64,000 bases of DNA from a phage, in the sequence record OZ556245.1. One strand, given 5' to 3'. Under the pieces are notes generated by a model. The model was not told the origin of the DNA and did no database searches. It saw only the letters and a list, made by a program, of their open reading frames with translations. Numbering within the stretch: position 1 is the first letter of the stretch; every line of letters starts with the position of its first letter. Position numbers and translations under genes: made by a program. This document shows positions 3,400 through 62,430 of this stretch, in pieces.

Positions 3400-4035
3400 T
3401 CACAGTTCAGATGCTACGGTGATTACTGCTTCAATGTTTTCTGCCGAGCGTTTAATGTCAAGATACACATTGCCGTTTTTAGCGATTTTACATGACATTC
3501 CGATATCAGTAAATTTCTGAATATGATGTTCCATCATTTTGTATCCAAAAATTCGCATATTTCCATTGTTATTAATTTCAAAATTACGAATTCCGTGAGT
3601 GCGTTTTTCTAAAATAGCAAGATAGTTACTGCGGTAAGTTTCAACCTTTTTAAGAACAAATCCATTTTCATCTAAAAGTTTTAGCATGAGGTCTTTATCT
3701 TCTTCCATATCGGAAGTAATCTCACGAGCTTTACGAGTTGCTCGTTTTTTCAGCAGTTCAGGAGCATTTTCCTGTGCATATAAAGTTGCCGCATTTGAAA
3801 TAATATCCTGAGCTTCACCTGTAATGATCAATCCATCACCAGATTTCTCCACCAGGCCTTTTTTAATCAATACCCCAATATTACTATTAACTACTGCATT
3901 ACCTAAATCTGGATGCACCTCACGAACTTCTGCGGCTGTAATGAAATCTTTCTTAGCAATGGTAATTAAAATCGCAGCAGTTTTTTCATTCAGAACATCG
4001 TTAGAAGCTTTGATGATGTAAGTTACTTTAGACAT
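3400..4035 (-). CDS. motA: Middle-transcription activator MotA
   Basis: 211 aa, MSKVTYIIKASNDVLNEKTAAILITIAKKDFITAAEVREVHPDLGNAV recognised as MotA; RBS ggag 7 nt upstream. Confidence 0.9.
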   Translation of the reverse strand: MSKVTYIIKASNDVLNEKTAAILITIAKKDFITAAEVREVHPDLGNAVVNSNIGVLIKKGLVEKSGDGLIITGEAQDIISNAATLYAQENAPELLKKRATRKAREITSDMEEDKDLMLKLLDENGFVLKKVETYRSNYLAILEKRTHGIRNFEINNNGNMRIFGYKMMEHHIQKFTDIGMSCKIAKNGNVYLDIKRSAENIEAVITVASEL

Positions 4036-4072
4036 TTTAATCTCCGTTTCAGTTCATTTATTTGATAGGTCT

Positions 4073-4101
4073 ATAGTATCATGTTTAAAGCAGAAGTAAA
4101 C
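4073..4101 (-). promoter_or_regulatory. T4-type early promoter driving motA
   Basis: Minus strand reads GTTTAC - 17 nt - TACTAT, upstream of motA. Confidence 0.6.
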
Positions 4102-4140: not shown

Positions 4141-4368
4141 TTACTTAATGTTCAGATTACGAACTTCGATTTCGTCTTCATGGGCAAAATCAAACTGTTT
4201 GAATTCTGTGTCACCTTTAAATTTAAAAATCATTGTGAAGAAAGTCAGAACACCAGGTTTTTCTTCACGAACTCCACAGATATCATATTCAATACCATCT
4301 ACAACCAGTTTGTTAGCAGTCAGAGCATTTTTAGCTTTAACGATTTCGTTTTCGATTTTAAATTTCAT
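4141..4368 (-). CDS. Hypothetical early protein (motA.1-like)
   Basis: 75-aa ORF between two early promoters. Confidence 0.45.
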   Translation of the reverse strand: MKFKIENEIVKAKNALTANKLVVDGIEYDICGVREEKPGVLTFFTMIFKFKGDTEFKQFDFAHEDEIEVRNLNIK

Positions 4369-4417
4369 TTTTTGTATCTCCGGGTTGTTTGTTTCAGTTC
4401 ATTTATTTGATAGTTGT

Positions 4418-4447
4418 ATAGTACCATAAAGCTTTATGCTTGTAAAC
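4418..4447 (-). promoter_or_regulatory. T4-type early promoter
   Basis: Minus strand GTTTACA - 17 nt - TACTAT; lies inside the 76-bp repeat 4407-4482. Confidence 0.6.
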
Positions 4448-4464
4448 CGTTTTGTGAAAAAATT

Positions 4465-4497
4465 TTGAAATAAAAAAGGGAGAGCCTCGGCTCTCCC
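4465..4497 (-). terminator. Rho-independent terminator after the gene 52 operon
   Basis: Stem gggagag/ctctccc with 6-nt loop, followed on the minus strand by UUUUUUAUUUC. Confidence 0.6.
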
Positions 4498-4502
4498 TAA
4501 AA

Positions 4503-4652
4503 TTACTGCATGACTGTGATAACTGTCATGATAACACGTTGAATTCCGAACGCAAGAAGACCTCCTGCTACGGCAGGAACAACACCTAAACCCGCCAGTA
4601 AAATGCCACCAGATACTAATGCAGCGCTTGTAATACCTATGAATGGACTCAT
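4503..4652 (-). CDS. Small membrane protein
   Basis: 49 codons, MSPFIGITSAALVSGGILLAGLGVVPAVAGG..., ATG overlaps gene 52 stop (ATGA). Confidence 0.4.
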   Translation of the reverse strand: MSPFIGITSAALVSGGILLAGLGVVPAVAGGLLAFGIQRVIMTVITVMQ

Positions 4653-7431: not shown

Positions 7432-7531
7432 AGTAAGCGTTTAATACATCAATCATTAAAACGATTGGGAATATACTCAAAACTACTAGTATTATAACTA
7501 CATTCCATATAGCTTTAACAATCTTTTTCAT
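7418..7531 (-). CDS. Small membrane peptide
   Basis: ORF-track ORF trimmed to the ATG downstream of the promoter at 7559-7589; MKKIVKAIWNVVIILVVLSIFPIVLMIDVLNAYFGFM; RBS cctcc. Confidence 0.35.
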   Translation of the reverse strand: MKKIVKAIWNVVIILVVLSIFPIVLMIDVLNAYFGFM

Positions 7532-7558
7532 TTTCTGTTCCTCCGTAGTTGATAGTTG

Positions 7559-7589
7559 TATAGTACCACAAAGGAACAGTCTTGTAAAC
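7559..7589 (-). promoter_or_regulatory. T4-type early promoter
   Basis: Minus strand GTTTACA - spacer - TACTATAC; part of the recurring cassette. Confidence 0.55.
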
Positions 7590-7805
7590 AACTTTTTAAA
7601 AATATTCGTAATAAATGTGAATACCAATCACCACTGCCGAAACTTGTGCAACCCACCATGCACAAGCAATAAGTACAGAATTCAAAATTTTCATAATAAC
7701 CTCATTACAAAAGTAAATGTTAAACAAATTAATGGAATACTAACTAACCAAACAAAACACCACCACAATGAACTCATAGTTCAATCTCAACGATTTTCAT
7801 TTTAC

Positions 7806-12541: not shown

Positions 12542-12571
12542 ATTATACCACATCCTTGTGGTAAAGTAAAC
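12542..12571 (-). promoter_or_regulatory. T4-type early promoter overlapping the gene 39 stop codon
   Basis: Minus strand AGTTTAC - spacer - TATAAT (consensus -10). Confidence 0.6.
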
Positions 12572-14388
12572 TATTGGCTCATCCATTCTTTACGAAGGTC
12601 AGCATTATCTCCCATGAGCATTTCAAAAAGCTCTTTCCAGTTCTCAGGAAGTTTAACAACATCATATACTGGGTTTTGAATCATCTCACGGTATTCAGAT
12701 TTTTCCAAAGAGCCAAGTCCCTTAATATAACGGATGCTATGTTTAGGTAGAGCATCTTTGGCACTCTCATATTCAGCGACTGTATAAAACCATTCTTGTT
12801 TTTTACCGACCTGAGCGATGATTACAGGAGTTTTGACGAAGCGAATTCTTCCTTGTTCAAACAGTTCTGGCCAATTACTAAAAAATCCGAGCAGAGAAGG
12901 ATAAATGCTTCCTAGACCATCATGGTCGGCATCGGTCATAATTGCAATATTATGATAATTCAAGTTTTCAGCCTTTTCACCAAGAACTAATCCAGTGATT
13001 GCGCAAATATCAAACAGTTCTTTGTTTTTAAGCATATCAGCATATGACATACCCCAGCTGTTAAGAACTTTACCGCGTAATGGATAACCACCATGAAGTT
13101 CTTTATCACGAACATCAATAAGATATCCGATAGCCGAATCACCCTCAGTCAAGAAAAGAGTAGTGTCAGCATCTTTACCACAAAGATTCGCTTTAATATG
13201 TTTATGAACCTTAGCTTTAGAAGCCTTTTTAGCTGCTTTAGTTTCTGCTGCCTTTTCTGCAGCCAATTTACGAGCCAAAGCAGCTTCAATAATTGGCATT
13301 AAAATTGCTTCATTGTTTAAAATAGCGCGTGAAATCTTTTTAGCATCAAGCTGAATATGACTACGAATTTCACCAAATGGAGAAGTCAAACGCTCTTTAG
13401 TTTGAGAATCAAATCGCATGTTTTTCATATCACGAACAAACATGACGATAGTCAAACATTCTTTAACACGTGCTTTAGTTACATCAATTTTGAACTTGCG
13501 TTTGATTTGTGGAATAAGGTCTTCACAAATATCATCCATAACACAGTCAATGTGATGACCACCATTCTTAGTATGAATGTTATTAACGTATGTTAATTGA
13601 CGAAAACCATCCGGTGAACGACCAACCGCAATAGAACAATTTTCTTGTTCTTGAACAATAGCATGCTCATCATATTGGCGTGCGTATTTCTTAAAATTAC
13701 CCTGAACCTTTTTACCATTAAAGGTAAATTGAATATCAGGATAAACTACTGCAAGTGTCTGGAGACGATCTAGTGTAATGTCAAGATAAACTTGAGATAG
13801 CTCATTAGTTTCAAATGACATAAAATCAGGAATGAAAGTAACACGTGTTCCTTTCCATTTTCCAGGAATATCTTCCCATGATTTATTTTCCATGCCATTT
13901 GAACAACGAACTACAATATTATTTTGACCGTCGCCAGTTTCACCGATAAACATCACAGAAAAAATGTTAGTTAAACTAGAACCAACACCGTTCATACCGC
14001 CAGTGACGCGTTCTTTGTCATCACCAAAGTTACCACCTGCTTTTGGAATAGTCCAGGCAGCAACAGGACCAGGAATTTCTTCACCAGTAGGTGTTTTAAC
14101 CATCGCTTGTGGAATACCACGACCGTTATCTTCAACTGTTACTTGATTGTTTTTGATAGTAACATTAATTTTATTCGCGAATTTAAACTTAGTACGAATA
14201 CCTTCATCTACCGAGTTATCGATAATTTCATCAATAAGCTTAACAAGACCAGGTACATACTGAACACTTTCCCATTTACCAAACAGAAAGCGCTCATGCA
14301 TTTCATTAGCGGAAGAGCCAATGTACATGCCGCTACGCTTTTTGATATGTTCAATATCGCTCAGAATTTTAATTTCATTCTTAATCAT
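12571..14388 (-). CDS. 39: DNA topoisomerase II large subunit gp39 (GyrB-like ATPase plus Toprim), unsplit 39/60 form
   Basis: ORF-track start is GTG; ATG at 14388 gives 605 aa MIKNEIKIL...; motifs GMYIGS, EIIDNSVDE, Toprim LFLTEGDSA; continuous frame with no gap. Confidence 0.9.
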   Translation of the reverse strand: MIKNEIKILSDIEHIKKRSGMYIGSSANEMHERFLFGKWESVQYVPGLVKLIDEIIDNSVDEGIRTKFKFANKINVTIKNNQVTVEDNGRGIPQAMVKTPTGEEIPGPVAAWTIPKAGGNFGDDKERVTGGMNGVGSSLTNIFSVMFIGETGDGQNNIVVRCSNGMENKSWEDIPGKWKGTRVTFIPDFMSFETNELSQVYLDITLDRLQTLAVVYPDIQFTFNGKKVQGNFKKYARQYDEHAIVQEQENCSIAVGRSPDGFRQLTYVNNIHTKNGGHHIDCVMDDICEDLIPQIKRKFKIDVTKARVKECLTIVMFVRDMKNMRFDSQTKERLTSPFGEIRSHIQLDAKKISRAILNNEAILMPIIEAALARKLAAEKAAETKAAKKASKAKVHKHIKANLCGKDADTTLFLTEGDSAIGYLIDVRDKELHGGYPLRGKVLNSWGMSYADMLKNKELFDICAITGLVLGEKAENLNYHNIAIMTDADHDGLGSIYPSLLGFFSNWPELFEQGRIRFVKTPVIIAQVGKKQEWFYTVAEYESAKDALPKHSIRYIKGLGSLEKSEYREMIQNPVYDVVKLPENWKELFEMLMGDNADLRKEWMSQ

Positions 14389-54433: not shown

Positions 54434-55359
54434 TTCAATACCTCAATAGCATTACGTAAACCATTTGCTTTTGCATTAAGAGCTTTTAACAATTTGGTGT
54501 GTTCGGCAATCTGGGCTTCAACTTCAATTAAACGAGCATTGAGATATTCACGTTCTTCGCTCAGGTTATCAACCTTTTCTACTTTAGGTTCTTTTACAGC
54601 TGTCTTATATGTATTAGGGTTCTTCAGTTTAATTAGAATGCGTGAACTGTATAACATTGAACCATTATCTTCGGTTTCGTCATACATTTCTACTACGTCC
54701 ATGATTTTTAACATCATGCGGAGTTTATAAGACAACGAACGAATAGTTTTGTTGTGCTTATTAATTTCTCTAGAGTTCATGGTGCCGAGATTACGTGAGT
54801 AATAATAAGGAACCTGGATATTAATTAGCACTGATGAACCACCTGGCTTATGTGTTACTTCATCAGCAATAACCCAGTCCTTAACATGAACTGTATTTGT
54901 ACGGTCATCACCAGCAGTAAATAGTTTGCGAGCATGCTTAAAAAGCATATTCACTTGGGTATTGAATTGACAAGCAAATTTATCAGCAAATTTAGTTTCA
55001 GGAATGGTAGATAACCAATCAGCCAAATGGGTCTTTTTAACATCGTTAACAATAGTAAATTCAACCAAATCGGTTATAGATGTCGTAGATTTAATGAAGC
55101 TCGGCTTCATAAAGTTTTTAATGTTATCGCGAGCTACAGTAGAAGATAACATACGAGAACGTTTAAACCATTCAAGCAAATTGCCTAACGAATGAGAATA
55201 AGCGTTTTGAGTATCTTTACAGATATGATTTTCCTGGCCAACATATTGAAGGAAATCACGAAGAATATTATTGATTACTGCTCTGTGTCCGATATTATAA
55301 TTACGGTGTTTAGTAATAAGGCTGTCAAAATAATCAATATAATGTTTACGAGTTTTCAT
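54430..55359 (-). CDS. Coiled-coil paralog family member 1
   Basis: 309 aa; C-terminal heptad-rich tail; shares ...FKHARKLF... block with members 2-4. Confidence 0.45.
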   Translation of the reverse strand: MKTRKHYIDYFDSLITKHRNYNIGHRAVINNILRDFLQYVGQENHICKDTQNAYSHSLGNLLEWFKRSRMLSSTVARDNIKNFMKPSFIKSTTSITDLVEFTIVNDVKKTHLADWLSTIPETKFADKFACQFNTQVNMLFKHARKLFTAGDDRTNTVHVKDWVIADEVTHKPGGSSVLINIQVPYYYSRNLGTMNSREINKHNKTIRSLSYKLRMMLKIMDVVEMYDETEDNGSMLYSSRILIKLKNPNTYKTAVKEPKVEKVDNLSEEREYLNARLIEVEAQIAEHTKLLKALNAKANGLRNAIEVLK

Positions 55360-55411
55360 GTTCTTCTCACTTGGTTAATGATTTATACTCCGAGCCATCC
55401 TTGGCTTTAAA

Positions 55412-56413
55412 TTACTTAATTAACTGTAAAGCTTGTTCAAGACGATCCAGGCGATTAACAGATTCTTCCCAAATCCTTTTAGCTTGCTCATATTCTTTCT
55501 GCGCTTTATTAGAAATTTCTAGAACTTCTTTATAAGCTTTTTCTAATGCAATAACTTCTGGACGAATTTCTACCGGTTCAGGTGAATCGTCAAGACATTC
55601 CATTAGTTTCTCAAGGGTAGTTTCTTCTTTAGGAGTATTCACAATTTCTTCACATTTTTGTTGATAAATTTCTTTATCAGTCGGTGAGTACGCACACTTT
55701 ACTTCACGGAGACTAACTACAATTTTATATCCTTCCCAACCGCATATATTCTTAAAAGGATAAGTATGAATATTTTCTACTGTTTCCATACAAAGTAATG
55801 CGGTCTCTAACTGACGAGTTATATCGCTAGCAATTGAGAAAAATTTATTAATGTTCTTTTGATTAGCTTCTGGTGTAAAAAATTCATAATTCACAAAAAT
55901 AGCTGCTTTATTTTTATCAAGTTCATATTCTTTTATGATAATCATATCAGAAGCCCAAGGATGAATTTGACGATAATCGCCATAGCATAATTTAGAAGCT
56001 GATTTTAGAATTTGCTTTTTGAAAAGTCTGAAATTACTAATCCAACGACGAGTAAAAATATTCTCAGGGTCTTCTTTATTATTAAGATGATATGAATTAA
56101 CATCACCGAACCAATTATATCCTACTACATCTTTAGTTCGTTTAATTTCTTTCCCAAATTTACCGAGAATATCTTGGTTAACTAAATATGAAAGAAGACG
56201 AGAACCTTTGAAGGTTTCCTTAATATCATCTTTATATTCGCGACTAGAAATTTTATGAACTTCATGAATAAATTTGTTGGAAGAGACAATACTTGCATCA
56301 GTATTATTGAGCCATTGATTGATAATGGAAATAACACTATTCTGACTAGACACAGGTTTAACTTTATCATCAATAACGCTATTGAATGATTTGATATATT
56401 CGTTACGAGTCAT
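55412..56413 (-). CDS. Coiled-coil paralog family member 2
   Basis: Trimmed to the ATG (MTRNEYIK...) downstream of the promoter at 56442-56471; block FTRRWISNFRLFKKQILKSASKL. Confidence 0.45.
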   Translation of the reverse strand: MTRNEYIKSFNSVIDDKVKPVSSQNSVISIINQWLNNTDASIVSSNKFIHEVHKISSREYKDDIKETFKGSRLLSYLVNQDILGKFGKEIKRTKDVVGYNWFGDVNSYHLNNKEDPENIFTRRWISNFRLFKKQILKSASKLCYGDYRQIHPWASDMIIIKEYELDKNKAAIFVNYEFFTPEANQKNINKFFSIASDITRQLETALLCMETVENIHTYPFKNICGWEGYKIVVSLREVKCAYSPTDKEIYQQKCEEIVNTPKEETTLEKLMECLDDSPEPVEIRPEVIALEKAYKEVLEISNKAQKEYEQAKRIWEESVNRLDRLEQALQLIK

Positions 56414-56441: not shown

Positions 56442-56471
56442 ATTATACCACATCCTTGTGGCAAAGTAAAC
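56442..56471 (-). promoter_or_regulatory. T4-type early promoter overlapping the upstream stop codon
   Basis: Near-identical to the promoter at 12542-12571 (attataccacatccttgtggNaaagtaaact). Confidence 0.55.
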
Positions 56472-57493
56472 TAGTTTAGTGCATTTAGTGCATTGTTCAG
56501 TTTAGAACGTTGCTTCGTAAGATTTTTGACTTTTTCTTGAGCTTTTTCTAGCATCTTTTCAGCTTCTAACACTTCATTAGTTGCTTTAACGAGTTCATCA
56601 TCTACTGCCTTGATAGACTTCTCAATCGCATCCGCATGCCATTTTTCAACAGGTTTAAGACTCGGATTTTCAACAGGAAGAAAATTCACTTTATTGAATT
56701 TCCATGCATCTTTATTACTTGAACTATACATCCAAAATTTAGGATCGTTTGATGAGTAATTGGATAAATTTAAGTTATCTTGCACTTCCTGCTTTTTCTC
56801 TTGTGGGACTTCGTCCTTTCTCAAAAAATCGTATTTAAATGAAACGATCATATCAAGTTCATACGTTGTTGTATGTTCCCAATTTCGCTCAAAATGAGGT
56901 AAAATCTTAGACTGAACAGCGGCAACAACATCCATATACTTAAATGCTTCTGTCAACTGTGATTTAAGGCATTCGCAAATTGAAAGAGAATTTTTTGTAT
57001 TAGGTTTAAAGCTAATTCGCGCAGTTCTGTTATTTTCTTTTAATGGTCTTACTTCCATCTGAAGAGTATAATCATCAAATTTCAGATTCTTTAAGTTAAT
57101 ATCAGAACCTTTTAATCGACTCGCAATTGATAAAATTTGTTTTAATTGTTTACGGAATAGAGCAATAAATCTCCATTCAATACGATAATGATTTGGATTG
57201 AAAAATCCAGATGATAAATCGACCTTACTTTGACCAACGCCTTGAACAAATAGAGGATTTTTATAATCAATAGTTTTACAGAAATCGGTGAGCTGCTCAC
57301 GAGCAGTCATTTGTGTAATATATCCTGCTTGGTTAAAATTGCGCACCCATTCACTGCTGTTCAGATGTTTAAAGGCATGAATGGAACAATTAACTTTACC
57401 AAGGTCTAAATTATTTTCACACAAAAACGTCATAGCATCACGAGTATAGCTGGCATTACGAACCATATCTTCAATTTGAGAACGAGTTTTCAT
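56471..57493 (-). CDS. Coiled-coil paralog family member 3
   Basis: 340 aa; block YRIEWRFIALFRKQLKQILSIASRL; C-terminal coiled coil. Confidence 0.45.
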   Translation of the reverse strand: MKTRSQIEDMVRNASYTRDAMTFLCENNLDLGKVNCSIHAFKHLNSSEWVRNFNQAGYITQMTAREQLTDFCKTIDYKNPLFVQGVGQSKVDLSSGFFNPNHYRIEWRFIALFRKQLKQILSIASRLKGSDINLKNLKFDDYTLQMEVRPLKENNRTARISFKPNTKNSLSICECLKSQLTEAFKYMDVVAAVQSKILPHFERNWEHTTTYELDMIVSFKYDFLRKDEVPQEKKQEVQDNLNLSNYSSNDPKFWMYSSSNKDAWKFNKVNFLPVENPSLKPVEKWHADAIEKSIKAVDDELVKATNEVLEAEKMLEKAQEKVKNLTKQRSKLNNALNALN

Positions 57494-58862: not shown

Positions 58863-59390
58863 TTATGCGAGTACCGTCTTTAACCGTTCTTCAAACTTCC
58901 GAAGAGTATTTTGGCGTTCAGCTCTTTGCTTTTTGTAAGTTTCAATACGCTCTGAAATGAGAGAGTATCGTTCATTTACTGATTCTTTCATAAAATCAGG
59001 AATTTCACGAGAAGCTTTAATCTCGTCAAATTTATCAATAACAGCCTGCTCTTCAGCAATTAAGTTATCATACATTAAAATATCTTTCTTGATGAACTCA
59101 ATATCTTCTTGAGTTACACGAGATAATTTAGATGCTTTATCCTTTTTGTACTGTTCGTTAGTATCACGAGACCAGTGTAATGTACGATTTTTATTCGTAT
59201 TTTTGTAAATTTCTACAATACCGATCTCATCGATAATAACGATCCAATTCCAACGGGATTTGTAAATTTGTCCTCCATCAACAGTGATTTCACCTCCAAT
59301 TGAGATGTCATTAAAGAACTTGCTTTGCGCTTCAGATTTAAATTTACCATCGTTGTAATTTACCAAGTTGAAAATATCTTTAGCGTTCAT
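58863..59390 (-). CDS. Hypothetical protein with C-terminal coiled coil
   Basis: 175 aa; first gene after the early promoter at 59419-59448. Confidence 0.4.
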   Translation of the reverse strand: MNAKDIFNLVNYNDGKFKSEAQSKFFNDISIGGEITVDGGQIYKSRWNWIVIIDEIGIVEIYKNTNKNRTLHWSRDTNEQYKKDKASKLSRVTQEDIEFIKKDILMYDNLIAEEQAVIDKFDEIKASREIPDFMKESVNERYSLISERIETYKKQRAERQNTLRKFEERLKTVLA

Positions 59391-59418
59391 TTTGTGTTCC
59401 TCCGTAGTTGATAGTTGT

Positions 59419-59448
59419 ATAGTACCACAGAGGAACAGTCTTGTAAAC
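59419..59448 (-). promoter_or_regulatory. T4-type early promoter
   Basis: Minus strand GTTTACA - spacer - TACTATAC; cassette shared with 7559-7589. Confidence 0.55.
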
Positions 59449-59450
59449 CA

Positions 59451-59765
59451 CTAAAAGAAACTTCTTTCACATTTTTTTCCACTGAACCATGCACTTACCG
59501 CTTTCTTGGTCTCAGGAGCAGTGTTATCCATAAACCATTCAAAGGCAGCCTTTTTATGATTCTGGAGGGCTTCTCGGGCTTTAATCTGCTCACGGTCTAT
59601 TAACACTAACATATGAGCCTTTCTTGTCACCATGGGCTTCTTATGATTTTTTGAATACTCCCAGTCATTTGTCCATCGCATTGTCGTTGCGAACTGAAAT
59701 ACTGCTTCTTTAATTTTAGTTTCGTAAATTTCACGAGCCTTTGAGTATAACATCACTACCTCCAT
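59451..59765 (-). CDS. Hypothetical protein
   Basis: 104-aa ORF. Confidence 0.35.
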   Translation of the reverse strand: MEVVMLYSKAREIYETKIKEAVFQFATTMRWTNDWEYSKNHKKPMVTRKAHMLVLIDREQIKAREALQNHKKAAFEWFMDNTAPETKKAVSAWFSGKKCERSFF

Positions 59766-59854: not shown

Positions 59855-60823
59855 TTATTTCAGAAGAGTAACCTCAGCAATTTCTTCCCAACCGTTTTTG
59901 TCGGTCATAATAAAGTCAGCAAGATAAAGAGCAGTACGCAGTGAAACATTGCGTAAACGATTAACATTAACTTTCATCCATGATAATGCTTTATAAGTTT
60001 CTTCATCAGAAAGACCGCGCTTTTGCATCATGTCAGTTGAAAGAATAACATCTTCAACCCTGACCATAATTTCTTCATTAGTGTGAACACCCAAATCTAA
60101 ATAAACCGAGCGGGACACTAATGCTTGTAAATGTGGAGCAAGTTTAGTACCACGGTCTAATTCGCGGTCAATGTCAACGTTTGTGATAAAAACAATCGTT
60201 CCTTTAAATTCAAACTCACGCTCAATGCCTTTTTCTTCTAAGTAAGAAGACGCAGTGCTCCAGCAGACTTTACGGGTCTCTCCAGTGTCCAGAGCGGCTT
60301 TTAGAAGATTAAGAATATCCATATCAGAGAAAACATCCACATCATCAATCAAAAGGACAGAATTCTCTTCACGATTATTCCAAAGCTGCTCATAAAGACC
60401 AATACCAGAGATTTTACCATTAATGCTTTTATATTCAATGTATCCAATATCATTTGCTTTATTCAAAGCTTTATCTAAAGAATACGTTTTACCAATACCT
60501 GCTGCGCCAGAGATAATTAATGAACGAATATTTCCATTAATAATACCATTCGTCATCATTCCCATAACATTAAATCTTTTATTAATGCGGGTTTTCATAT
60601 CTTCATATGATTCTTTAACTTCTTCAACTTTTACACCATCATATGAAATATCTGATTTGTAAACCCAAACACCGCGACGCTTACCGTCAATTTCAACAAA
60701 AACTTTACCATCTCCTTGTGCATCTACCGGAGCATTATCTGGGAACCATTCGCCTAAGAGCTCAAAAGTTCCAGAGATTTCTTTACCGAAGTAGATACCC
60801 TTATTGATAGTTACAGTTTTCAT
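59855..60823 (-). CDS. P-loop NTPase (AAA-like ATPase)
   Basis: ORF-track start is GTG; ATG at 60823 with RBS GGAGAA; Walker A ISGAAGIGKTYS, Walker B VLLIDDVD. Confidence 0.5.
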   Translation of the reverse strand: MKTVTINKGIYFGKEISGTFELLGEWFPDNAPVDAQGDGKVFVEIDGKRRGVWVYKSDISYDGVKVEEVKESYEDMKTRINKRFNVMGMMTNGIINGNIRSLIISGAAGIGKTYSLDKALNKANDIGYIEYKSINGKISGIGLYEQLWNNREENSVLLIDDVDVFSDMDILNLLKAALDTGETRKVCWSTASSYLEEKGIEREFEFKGTIVFITNVDIDRELDRGTKLAPHLQALVSRSVYLDLGVHTNEEIMVRVEDVILSTDMMQKRGLSDEETYKALSWMKVNVNRLRNVSLRTALYLADFIMTDKNGWEEIAEVTLLK

Positions 60824-60859
60824 TTTATTCTCCAATTTCACATTTGTTTTGATAGGGTA

Positions 60860-60889
60860 ATAGTATCACACTACTACCCTACTGTAAAC
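60860..60889 (-). promoter_or_regulatory. T4-type early promoter
   Basis: Minus strand GTTTACA - spacer - TACTAT. Confidence 0.5.
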
Positions 60890-60892
60890 AAT

Positions 60893-61156
60893 TTATTTTA
60901 ATGTTTGCCAAATTTTTACTGCTTCGCGACGAGATACTTCTACAGCTCCAAGTTCTACGGCTTTTTGGCGTCGGCGAGCATGTAAGTCATAATGTTTAAT
61001 GCGTTTATCTTGAAACCAAGAACGTTTCATTCCTATTGCTTCTGCCATTTTATGAAGCTCTTCAATATCTCCATCAGTGAACATATGACAATTTTTAGTT
61101 GGATGACCGCGAAGTTTCCATCCATGATTCATTAAAACATCTACGTAAACTGTCAT
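60893..61156 (-). CDS. Hypothetical protein (nrdC.11-like)
   Basis: 87-aa ORF. Confidence 0.4.
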   Translation of the reverse strand: MTVYVDVLMNHGWKLRGHPTKNCHMFTDGDIEELHKMAEAIGMKRSWFQDKRIKHYDLHARRRQKAVELGAVEVSRREAVKIWQTLK

Positions 61157-61302
61157 TGATTCTGCTCCAAATATGTTTCTATAATTTTCTGAGCGAGATA
61201 AACTGCGTTATCTTCAGTTGCATCTTCTAAGAAATTTTCAAAATAAACTGAAATTTCTTCTGTGTCAATCAACTTTTTTACTTCAATTAACGTAGTTTTC
61301 AT
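61153..61302 (-). CDS. Small acidic protein
   Basis: 49 codons MKTTLIEVKKLIDTEEISVYFENFLEDATEDNAVYLAQK..., coupled ATGA to the next gene. Confidence 0.35.
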   Translation of the reverse strand: MKTTLIEVKKLIDTEEISVYFENFLEDATEDNAVYLAQKIIETYLEQNQ

Positions 61303-61336
61303 TTTATTCCCCAAATCCGTATCAGTTGATAGTTGT

Positions 61337-61366
61337 ATAGTACCATAAAGCTTTATGCTTGTAAAC
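61337..61366 (-). promoter_or_regulatory. T4-type early promoter inside the 76-bp repeat
   Basis: Identical to 4418-4447. Confidence 0.55.
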
Positions 61367-61390
61367 CGTTTTGTGAAAAAATTTTGAAAT

Positions 61391-61414
61391 AAAAAAGGGA
61401 GCCCGAAGGCTCCC
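61391..61414 (-). terminator. Rho-independent terminator after the NTase-like gene
   Basis: gggagcc-cgaa-ggctccc followed by U6 on the minus strand. Confidence 0.6.
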
Positions 61415-61416
61415 TA

Positions 61417-62430
61417 TCATTTATAATAACTTCGATGGTTTTCAAGATAAACCCTCTCAAGGAAGTCATCCCAAAAACACATGTCTACTTTTTGCTGCAT
61501 ACCGTTCTTAGAAGCTTCAATGGATGCTGCTTCTACTTGATCGACCACATCTTCCAAAAACTCTTGAACAGTTTTAAATGGATGTTTACCCAACTTCACG
61601 TCGAGAATAAATGGAGCGTCTTGAAGTGGATAGACTAAGTCACCAGTTTTGTAAATTTCCAATAGTTGGAGTCCACCACGGCAAGCATGACTCAGAGCTT
61701 TCCAGTCAATGCCCTCATTAGCTTCGGCCTTACGAGCGCGTTCGCCGTATTCAGCATCAAGTTTATTCAAAGATTGCTTAAGCTCGATAAGAGAAAGCGT
61801 TGTTTGATATTTACGACCCAACACGGTGTAGAACGTTTGTGGGCCTGTTTTCTCATGATTATGGAATACCCATTCACAGAATTCGTTCTCTGGAAGACGA
61901 TGCTTAATATCTTCAACTTTAGTTCGACGCTGCTTAATGGAACCGTCTTCTTGGTAATCAACCCATTGCTCAGGGATTTGATTAACTACTTTCAATACAT
62001 CACGTAATGCGGCCAAACGAGAACCCTTAACACCGTATTTAGAAGCTTGCTTGCGAACATATCCTAAATAGGATTTCATGTTAGTCGTATAAAAACGAGA
62101 ACGATTGTCTTGAATAAACTTCCATACATCAGGCAAATCAGATTTAACCACTAGTTCCGGTGGAGTGTGGAGCATATCCAATGCTACAGTTTCACCATCT
62201 GCAGCTAATTTAAAGAAATACTTAAGACTATATAGTTCATGGTCAATATCATCTTTAGTGTTTTTAGATGATGTGTTGTTAGTGTTTTTACTCATATGCT
62301 CTTTAACATTTCCGATAAGAATATCGCGAGCAGGAGGAACAAAGATTTCTTTAAAATCTACATCAGATTCTGGAGTAGAAGTTCCATAAAGATGACTACC
62401 AAAATAGCTTTTCATTACTGTTTTCATCAT
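61417..62430 (-). CDS. Putative Pol-beta-superfamily nucleotidyltransferase-like protein
   Basis: 337 aa; N-terminal YFGSHLYGTSTPESDVDF matches the G[SG]-x9-D-x-D NTase signature; coupled ATGA to the upstream membrane-protein gene. Confidence 0.4.
   Translation of the reverse strand: MMKTVMKSYFGSHLYGTSTPESDVDFKEIFVPPARDILIGNVKEHMSKNTNNTSSKNTKDDIDHELYSLKYFFKLAADGETVALDMLHTPPELVVKSDLPDVWKFIQDNRSRFYTTNMKSYLGYVRKQASKYGVKGSRLAALRDVLKVVNQIPEQWVDYQEDGSIKQRRTKVEDIKHRLPENEFCEWVFHNHEKTGPQTFYTVLGRKYQTTLSLIELKQSLNKLDAEYGERARKAEANEGIDWKALSHACRGGLQLLEIYKTGDLVYPLQDAPFILDVKLGKHPFKTVQEFLEDVVDQVEAASIEASKNGMQQKVDMCFWDDFLERVYLENHRSYYK

Follow-up and report, generated by a model that had tools for sequence, protein, structure and literature searches.

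Two early-promoter and terminator cassettes 57 kb apart, identical over 76 bp, in a T4-like phage

Genetic context of the repeated element

The window, that is, the whole stretch of DNA analysed here, comprises 64,000 nucleotides of a phage sequence (record OZ556245.1), which BLAST of both neighbourhoods described below assigns to Tequatrovirus as a T4-like phage, with LF73P3, VIPECOOM01-03, L14, vB_SsoM_113, and UGKSEcP1/2 as the best matches. A 76-bp element occurs in it twice, once downstream of motA.1 and once downstream of nrdC.11. Since all genes around both copies lie on the minus strand, the element is to be read as its reverse complement; the initial annotation had described it on the plus strand, whereas its components function on the minus strand. 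In the direction of transcription, the features around copy 1 are the following:

4503..4652, minus strand: motA.1 (49 aa), located after gene 52; its transcript is predicted to end at the copy-1 hairpin
4477..4498, minus strand: predicted intrinsic terminator hairpin of motA.1, AGGGAGAGC-CGAG-GCUCUCCCU, with its U-tract at 4467-4476
4407..4482, minus strand: repeat copy 1, a promoter-early stem-loop (PeSL) between motA.1 and the inserted ORF75
4418..4446, minus strand: copy-1 early promoter, with -35 TTTACA at 4441-4446 and -10 TACTAT at 4418-4423
4424-4440, minus strand: copy-1 spacer of 17 nt, AGCATAAAGCTTTATGG, of the nrdC.10 type and containing the 14-bp palindrome CATAAAGCTTTATG
4141..4368, minus strand: ORF75 (75 aa, phrog_10955, function unknown), absent from T4, between the motA.1 PeSL and motA
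4073..4100, minus strand: second early promoter, TTTACT-N16-TACTAT, now predicted to drive motA
3400..4035, minus strand: motA, the middle-transcription activator (Pfam MotA_activ and MotCF)

T4 is devoid of ORF75 and has motA immediately after motA.1. The -10 and leader of the second promoter (4046-4082) repeat those of the ORF75 leader (4391-4427) at 34 of 37 positions, and ORF75 is thus bracketed by direct repeats. The gene is present in 168 phage records and behaves as a travelling module. An ORF75 with 98.7% protein identity is also found in a phage of another genus, Dhakavirus JS10, between two copies of a single promoter and leader, which gives it the look of a one-gene cassette transferred recently. 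Pfam returned no match for ORF75, ORF53 (listed below), or motA.1, and PHROGs matched them to families of unknown function only.

The second copy lies in the following setting:

61417..62430, minus strand: nrdC.11, a nucleotidyltransferase gene (Pfam RlaP); its transcript is predicted to end at the copy-2 hairpin
61396..61415, minus strand: predicted intrinsic terminator hairpin of nrdC.11, AGGGAGCC-UUCG-GGCUCCCU, with its U-tract at 61386-61395
61326..61401, minus strand: repeat copy 2, a PeSL between nrdC.11 and ORF53, an orthologue of the T4 'early promoter 54.4' element with the same sequence
61337..61365, minus strand: copy-2 early promoter, with -35, spacer, and -10 as in copy 1
60893..61302, minus strand: two-gene module absent from T4, made up of ORF53 and a DUF4031 protein gene
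61153-61302, minus strand: ORF53 (49 aa, as listed from a TTG start; phrog_6888)
60893-61156, minus strand: DUF4031 protein gene (87 aa), within the inserted module
60860..60888, minus strand: extra early promoter, now predicted to drive nrdC.10
59855-60832, minus strand: nrdC.10, which in T4 is directly downstream of the copy-2 element

The ORF53/DUF4031 module is bracketed by the direct repeat GGRGAATAAAATGAAAACT. Given that ORF75 at copy 1 and ORF53 and the DUF4031 gene at copy 2 are all missing from T4, both copies border modules that distinguish the window from T4. Further indels are found at copy 2 in LF73P3 and in Shigella phage CT01. LF73P3 has an extra 161-aa ORF (locus 829-1314) between nrdC.11 and ORF53, which matches the RNA polymerase ADP-ribosylase family phrog_832, has a PeSL of its own (promoter and terminator), and adjoins the swapped spacer arrangement described below. 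In CT01, the ORF53/DUF4031 region (locus 554-849) is approximately 150 bp longer, the additional segment being annotated as a second 150-bp ORF; judged by its sequence, this segment looks like a tandem partial duplication, that is, a further indel at the copy-2 hotspot.

Architecture of the promoter and terminator

On the minus strand, both copies read CTCCC-UUUUUUAUUUC-AAAATTTTTTCACAAAACG-GTTTAC-A-AGCATAAAGCTTTATGG-TACTAT-ACAACTATCAA, which begins with the five 3' bases of a terminator stem and the U-tract, continues with an A/T-rich tract and the -35 element, and closes with the 17-nt spacer, the -10 element, and a conserved start region. In both copies, the A/T-rich tract that precedes the -35 is TTTTTTATTTCAAAATTTTTTCACAAAACG, and the spacer ends in the extended -10 motif TGG, which immediately precedes TACTAT. 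Consensus scans return TTTACA-N17-TACTAT, with TG before the -10, at both copies. The leaders that follow end in GGAGATACAAAAAATG for ORF75 and in GGGGAATAAAATG for ORF53, each with a Shine-Dalgarno sequence and start codon at the 3' end. Across the window, the class consensus TTTACW-N17-TAYWAT has 17 matches on the minus strand, which is the gene-coding strand, and none on the plus strand; strand and position of these matches fit early transcription units, and their spacers have a median of 6 of 17 nt in common.

At both copies, a G+C-rich hairpin followed by a U-run lies downstream of a stop codon, as in intrinsic terminators, and both terminators were called with ARNOLD in the annotation of the related phage D5505. 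The predicted copy-1 hairpin has 9 bp and a CGAG loop (-17.6 kcal/mol, z ~ -4), and that of copy 2 has 8 bp and a UUCG loop (-17.7 kcal/mol, z ~ -4). Past the end of the repeat, the sequences of the hairpins diverge within common outer GGGAG/CTCCC pairs. The early promoter and the U-tract and stem bases of the upstream terminator that the initial annotation had placed in each copy are borne out by the consensus scans, the folding, and the annotation of the T4 record U76612. Its further reading of the hairpins holds in part: both differ and still pair when folded, but a single stem kept by compensatory change, which was considered and rejected, is contradicted by the conservation of each hairpin at its own site in T4. 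Given that the motA.1 and nrdC.11 terminators are separate, site-specific, and conserved in T4, the repeat merely ends inside them, and no compensatory stem is involved.

Each copy would thus end transcription of the upstream gene and then restart strong early transcription into the next small ORF; we infer such promoter and terminator activity in this particular phage from the sequence features. For annotation purposes, the 76-mer is best labeled as a terminator and early promoter, not as a mobile element.

Extent and rank of the identity

The identity of 4407-4482 with 61326-61401, in the same orientation, extends over 76 bp without a mismatch, and a pattern search of the 64-kb window tolerating up to 3 mismatches (<=3) finds exactly these two matches. 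Thus, the perfect 76-bp identity over a distance of 57 kb with which the work began is confirmed both by reading the sequences and by this search. None of 100 dinucleotide-preserving shuffles matched the 76-mer, and the identity is far above chance. When the window is compared with itself, a check that had been proposed at the outset, the 76-bp pair comes out as its longest exact direct repeat; the runners-up, of 40, 35, and 35 bp, are again parts of early promoters or leaders. If the 17 strict early promoters are set in the same 76-nt frame, the pair agrees at 76/76 positions and the next pair at 55/76, while the median over all 136 pairs is 34/76.

T4 orthologues and alleles in relatives

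The nrdC.11/nrdC.10 site of T4 carries the identical 76-mer: T4 55321-55434 agrees with window 61303-61416 at 113 of 114 positions and at 76 of 76 over the repeat. This orthologue of copy 2 is annotated in the T4 record U76612 with the -35 and -10 of 'early promoter 54.4' and with a terminator. The 'terminator' feature of that record (1267-1294) covers the U-tract and the A/T tract and misses the real hairpin by approximately 20 nt, which looks like a coordinate slip in an old record. At the motA.1/motA site, T4 agrees with copy 1 in the hairpin, A/T tract, -35, -10, and start region, save that its A/T tract has one different base and one extra A (TTTTAAAAA vs TTTCAAAA); its spacer is ACCAAAGCATACTGTGG. 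The two T4 elements are therefore themselves paralogues, with approximately 38 bp upstream and 20 bp downstream in common and a divergent spacer between, and both hairpins, that of motA.1 and that of nrdC.11, are present in T4.

Alleles were compared in 11 phages, namely 10 Tequatrovirus genomes and Dhakavirus JS10. The spacer types at the two sites are as follows:

T4: motA type at the motA.1 site; nrdC.10 type at the nrdC.11 site
D5505: motA type at the motA.1 site; nrdC.10 type at the nrdC.11 site
PYps47T and OES_C-3: motA type at the motA.1 site
Window: nrdC.10 type at both sites, identical over 76 bp
VIPECOOM01 and vB_SsoM_113: nrdC.10 type at both sites
KK4: nrdC.10 type at the motA.1 site
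LF73P3: nrdC.10 type at the motA.1 site; motA type at the nrdC.11 site (swapped)
L14: nrdC.10 type at both sites, with 88 bp shared into a chimeric hairpin

Presence of ORF75 does not go with one spacer, as D5505, PYps47T, and OES_C-3 bear the gene and have retained a copy-1 spacer of the motA type. Conservation of the nrdC.10-type spacer extends over several hundred genomes; at the motA.1 site this spacer is found in approximately 13 database records besides the window, and most relatives differ there. With copy 1 as the query, 127 records cover its full length; identity to the window reaches 97% or more in 13 of them and does not exceed 94% in the others, among the matches listed. These population counts are drawn from the GenBank phage collection. 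In IMG/VR, a 26-nt core recovers 5 loci, 3 of which are readable across the spacer and all of the motA type, too few for population counts.

L14 holds the exact 76-mer at both sites, and its two cassettes have 88 exact bp in common. Its nrdC.11-site hairpin (locus ~3484-3575) is chimeric (GGGAGCC-TCGGCTCTCCC; GGGAGCCTCGGCTCTCCC) and has a weakened stem, which places one end point of the exchange inside the hairpin. The loop of the motA.1 hairpin varies as well, being CGAG in the window, T4, and D5505 and its mirror CUCG in OES_C-3, KK4, and L14, which amounts to an inversion of the loop within a perfect palindromic stem. When loop type is tabulated against spacer type at the motA.1 site, all four combinations occur.

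Membership of the PeSL class

PeSLs are composite elements that include a T4/PST class, in which a promoter with the consensus TTTACW-N17-TAYWAT has a stem-loop just upstream (Arbiol 2010, PMC2839356; Comeau 2014, PMC4122927). They have been proposed to serve as sites of homologous recombination at which adjacent ORFs are inserted, deleted, or swapped, with less than 50 bp of homology being enough for T4 recombination (PMC2839356; PMC4122927). To judge from sequence, both copies are members of this known class, and the window fits the model in every respect that sequence can test. The initial annotation had recognized neither the class nor the presence of the copy-2 76-mer in T4. Each copy has an early promoter that matches the class consensus, a stable predicted stem-loop directly upstream of it, an A/T tract preceding the -35, and, at the 3' end, the start codon of the downstream ORF with its Shine-Dalgarno sequence; copy 2 is, in addition, orthologous to the annotated T4 early promoter 54.4. 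The location is plastic, the adjoining ORFs not being the same in close relatives, and chimeric elements occur, namely the LF73P3 swap, the L14 88-bp tract with its hairpin, and the four combinations of loop and spacer. Published PeSLs have the same terminator, A/T tract, promoter, and small-ORF start, and likewise lie in hyperplastic regions with chimeras in relatives. The stress in the published cases is on exchanges between nearby elements (mini-circles) and on indels of modules, whereas the pair in the window involves homogenization and swapping of spacers 57 kb apart, across an essential replication module.

Compared with their T4 counterparts, the two cassettes have changed their targets. 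Copy 2 equals the T4 promoter P_E 54.4 of nrdC.10 base for base over 76 bp, but here it drives ORF53/DUF4031 instead of nrdC.10. Copy 1 has the terminator, A/T tract, -35, -10, and start region of the T4 motA early promoter; unlike that promoter, it has the nrdC.10-type spacer and drives ORF75, not motA.

Origin of the identity

The two paralogous PeSL cassettes have very probably been made identical by ectopic homologous exchange or gene conversion. The ancestral state would be that of T4, with paralogous cassettes at the motA.1/motA and nrdC.11/nrdC.10 junctions. This polarity is suggested by the motA-type copy-1 spacer of the ORF75-bearing relatives D5505, PYps47T, and OES_C-3 and by the small share of records that closely match the window at copy 1. 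In the lineage of the window, the flanking identities would guide homologous recombination, by which the nrdC.10-type spacer, together with the exact lengths of the A-runs and T-runs, would be copied into the motA.1 element, such ectopic short-patch conversion or exchange producing the perfect 76-bp repeat. The conserved blocks would, at the same time, act as portable homology for the swapping of neighboring modules and of segments within promoters. Convergence or functional constraint was rejected as the source of the identity, given the median spacer sharing of 6/17 among the 17 promoters and the differences among copy-1 orthologues; since spacers vary freely, constraint does not explain why two of them are the same. 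The LF73P3 swap and the L14 88-bp tract together point to exchange in both directions with differing end points.

We infer recombination between the two sites from the mosaic alleles in the 11 sampled phages, from which the phage recombination machinery as the agent and the direction and number of events are likewise deduced. Their order is argued from parsimony. Conversion may have taken place once in an ancestor and then spread by allelic recombination, rather than in this phage. It could also be that ORF75 arrived together with the nrdC.10-type promoter and that the majority motA type was restored by allelic recombination with T4-like phages. Differences in homopolymer length among the alleles could be sequencing or slippage noise, not end points of tracts.

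On the first interpretation, recombination between the copies would delete or duplicate the 57 kb that separate them, or shuffle promoter-proximal genes. That the chief importance of the repeat lies in such deletion or duplication is very improbable. Direct repeats of 76 bp do exceed the homology required by T4 recombination (Arbiol 2010, PMC2839356, citing Singer 1982), and amplifications and deletions between short homologies do arise in T4 (Srikant et al. 2022), but the interval encodes the DNA polymerase, helicase, primase, clamp, clamp loader, gp46/47, topoisomerase, UvsX, and rIIA, and a deletion of these replication genes would be lethal and thus not heritable. A duplication would add 57 kb to a genome of approximately 167 kb, and the resulting unit of approximately 225 kb exceeds the headful and would not be heritable either: the T4 headful is 172 kb, or 102% of the genome, gains of a few kb need compensating deletions, and the viable size changes observed are 0.7-6 kb, with compensation (Srikant et al. 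2022). In line with this, no 57-kb rearrangement was found among the relatives recovered by BLAST of both neighbourhoods and the listed copy-1 records. Molecules with such deletions or duplications may form in the replicating pool, yet they would be dead ends. Gene shuffling near the promoters, on the other hand, stands, as seen in the chimeric elements and adjacent module indels of relatives; the heritable rearrangement of 57 kb does not, in view of the essential genes and the headful. What the genomes show, as read from their sequences, is conversion or exchange of short patches together with local insertion and turnover of modules. Selection for co-regulation has also to be considered, with the 14-bp spacer palindrome CATAAAGCTTTATG as an operator for a dimeric regulator of ORF75-motA and the nrdC.10 region. 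A perfect palindrome does lie between the -35 and -10, and the spacer that contains it is kept in several hundred genomes and has reached a second promoter in several isolates. However, a different copy-1 spacer works in most ORF75-bearing phages and the two spacers are swapped in LF73P3, so that no site needs a particular spacer, and no candidate regulator for the palindrome was identified. To our knowledge, shut-off of the early promoters in T4 relies on AsiA, Alc, and ADP-ribosylation and does not involve operators. Spacer palindromes are, moreover, a generic feature of PeSLs that has already been described (Arbiol 2010; Comeau 2014). Selection of this kind is accordingly an improbable source of the identity.

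A dedicated site-specific recombinase or a homing-endonuclease-type, integron-like system could in principle move the cassettes, and a dedicated recombination system was left open by Arbiol 2010 (PMC2839356). Homing endonuclease genes lie near the site in relatives, with mobD beside nrdC.11 in T4 and another after nrdC.10 in VIPECOOM01, and a nearby double-strand break could prompt repair from an ectopic template. Against such a system, the end points vary between isolates and fall anywhere within the shared blocks, as is expected of homology-driven exchange and not of a fixed crossover site. Pfam and PHROGs searches of the ORFs flanking either copy found no integrase or recombinase domain, and the element has neither the adjacent integrase or transposase nor the fixed crossover of attC-like integron sites and transposable elements; the involvement of a dedicated system is thus highly doubtful. 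The repeat might, finally, have been made by assembly or polishing that copied one promoter over the other, since consensus polishing can homogenize short repeats. The nrdC.10-type spacer at the motA.1 site, however, recurs in independent isolates from several countries (LF73P3, VIPECOOM01-03, L14, KK4, vB_SsoM_113, OE5505, GADU22, and fFiEco06), and L14 holds the exact 76-mer at both sites, which makes an artefact next to inconceivable.

Relation to known systems and significance

Ectopic exchange between paralogous PeSLs makes the pair a clear example of a known mechanism, not a new one. Concerted evolution of dispersed repeats, as in bacterial rrn operons (PMC8022953), likewise homogenizes same-orientation paralogues by non-reciprocal exchange. 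Unlike in rrn operons (PMC8022953), the tract is tiny (17-76 bp), the homogenized units are regulatory cassettes instead of genes, and the homogenized state is that of a minority of related genomes. Botstein-Campbell linkers and lambdoid morons also resemble the present case in that conserved intergenic sequences let modules bearing promoters and terminators swap in; entry of lambdoid morons is thought to occur by illegitimate recombination, whereas in the window the regulatory cassette itself supplies the homology. No paper on this specific pair was found when the literature was searched for ectopic gene conversion between early promoters of T4. The modest novelty lies only in the base-level documentation of homogenization and swapping between cassettes 57 kb apart, and, as the mechanism was proposed in 2010-2014, no new question is opened. 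What the pair provides is a natural, base-level example of the terminator-promoter cassettes of T4-type phages as portable homology: the same two cassettes occur across isolates in native, homogenized, swapped, or hairpin-fused form, and both adjoin modules absent from T4. In phage engineering, unwanted ectopic exchange is likely to occur where early-promoter cassettes are identical.

Other early-promoter pairs

Two further pairs of early promoters in the window are nearly identical. The segments 7527-7593 and 59386-59452 agree at 64 of 67 positions and 12542-12573 and 56442-56473 at 31 of 32, the spacers agreeing at 16/17 in each case. These additional pairs suggest that the same exchange process has acted on other promoters. 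Together with the 76-bp repeat, the three pairs join a plastic region at 4-13 kb to the nrdC.x region at 56-61 kb in nested order. An ancient duplication or inversion behind them was considered and rejected, because the combination of direct orientation and nested order fits neither, and the nesting is probably due to chance.

A more general proposition is that T4-like early-promoter cassettes evolve in concert, segments within promoters (spacer, A/T tract, hairpin arm) being swapped over tens of kb, sometimes reciprocally as in LF73P3, and often enough for continual ectopic joints in replicating pools, with the palindromic spacer perhaps itself a spreading functional unit (operator or structure). 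In this full form the proposition is speculative and rather unlikely.

The promoters at 59419-59447 and 7560-7588 have one more property, in that each leader has the Shine-Dalgarno region GAGGAAC, to which the segment GTTCCTC of its promoter spacer is complementary. With such complementarity, read-through transcripts from upstream could hide the ribosome-binding site, and transcripts initiated at the promoter could not. This pairing between spacer and leader resembles the known control of the T4 e/soc type.
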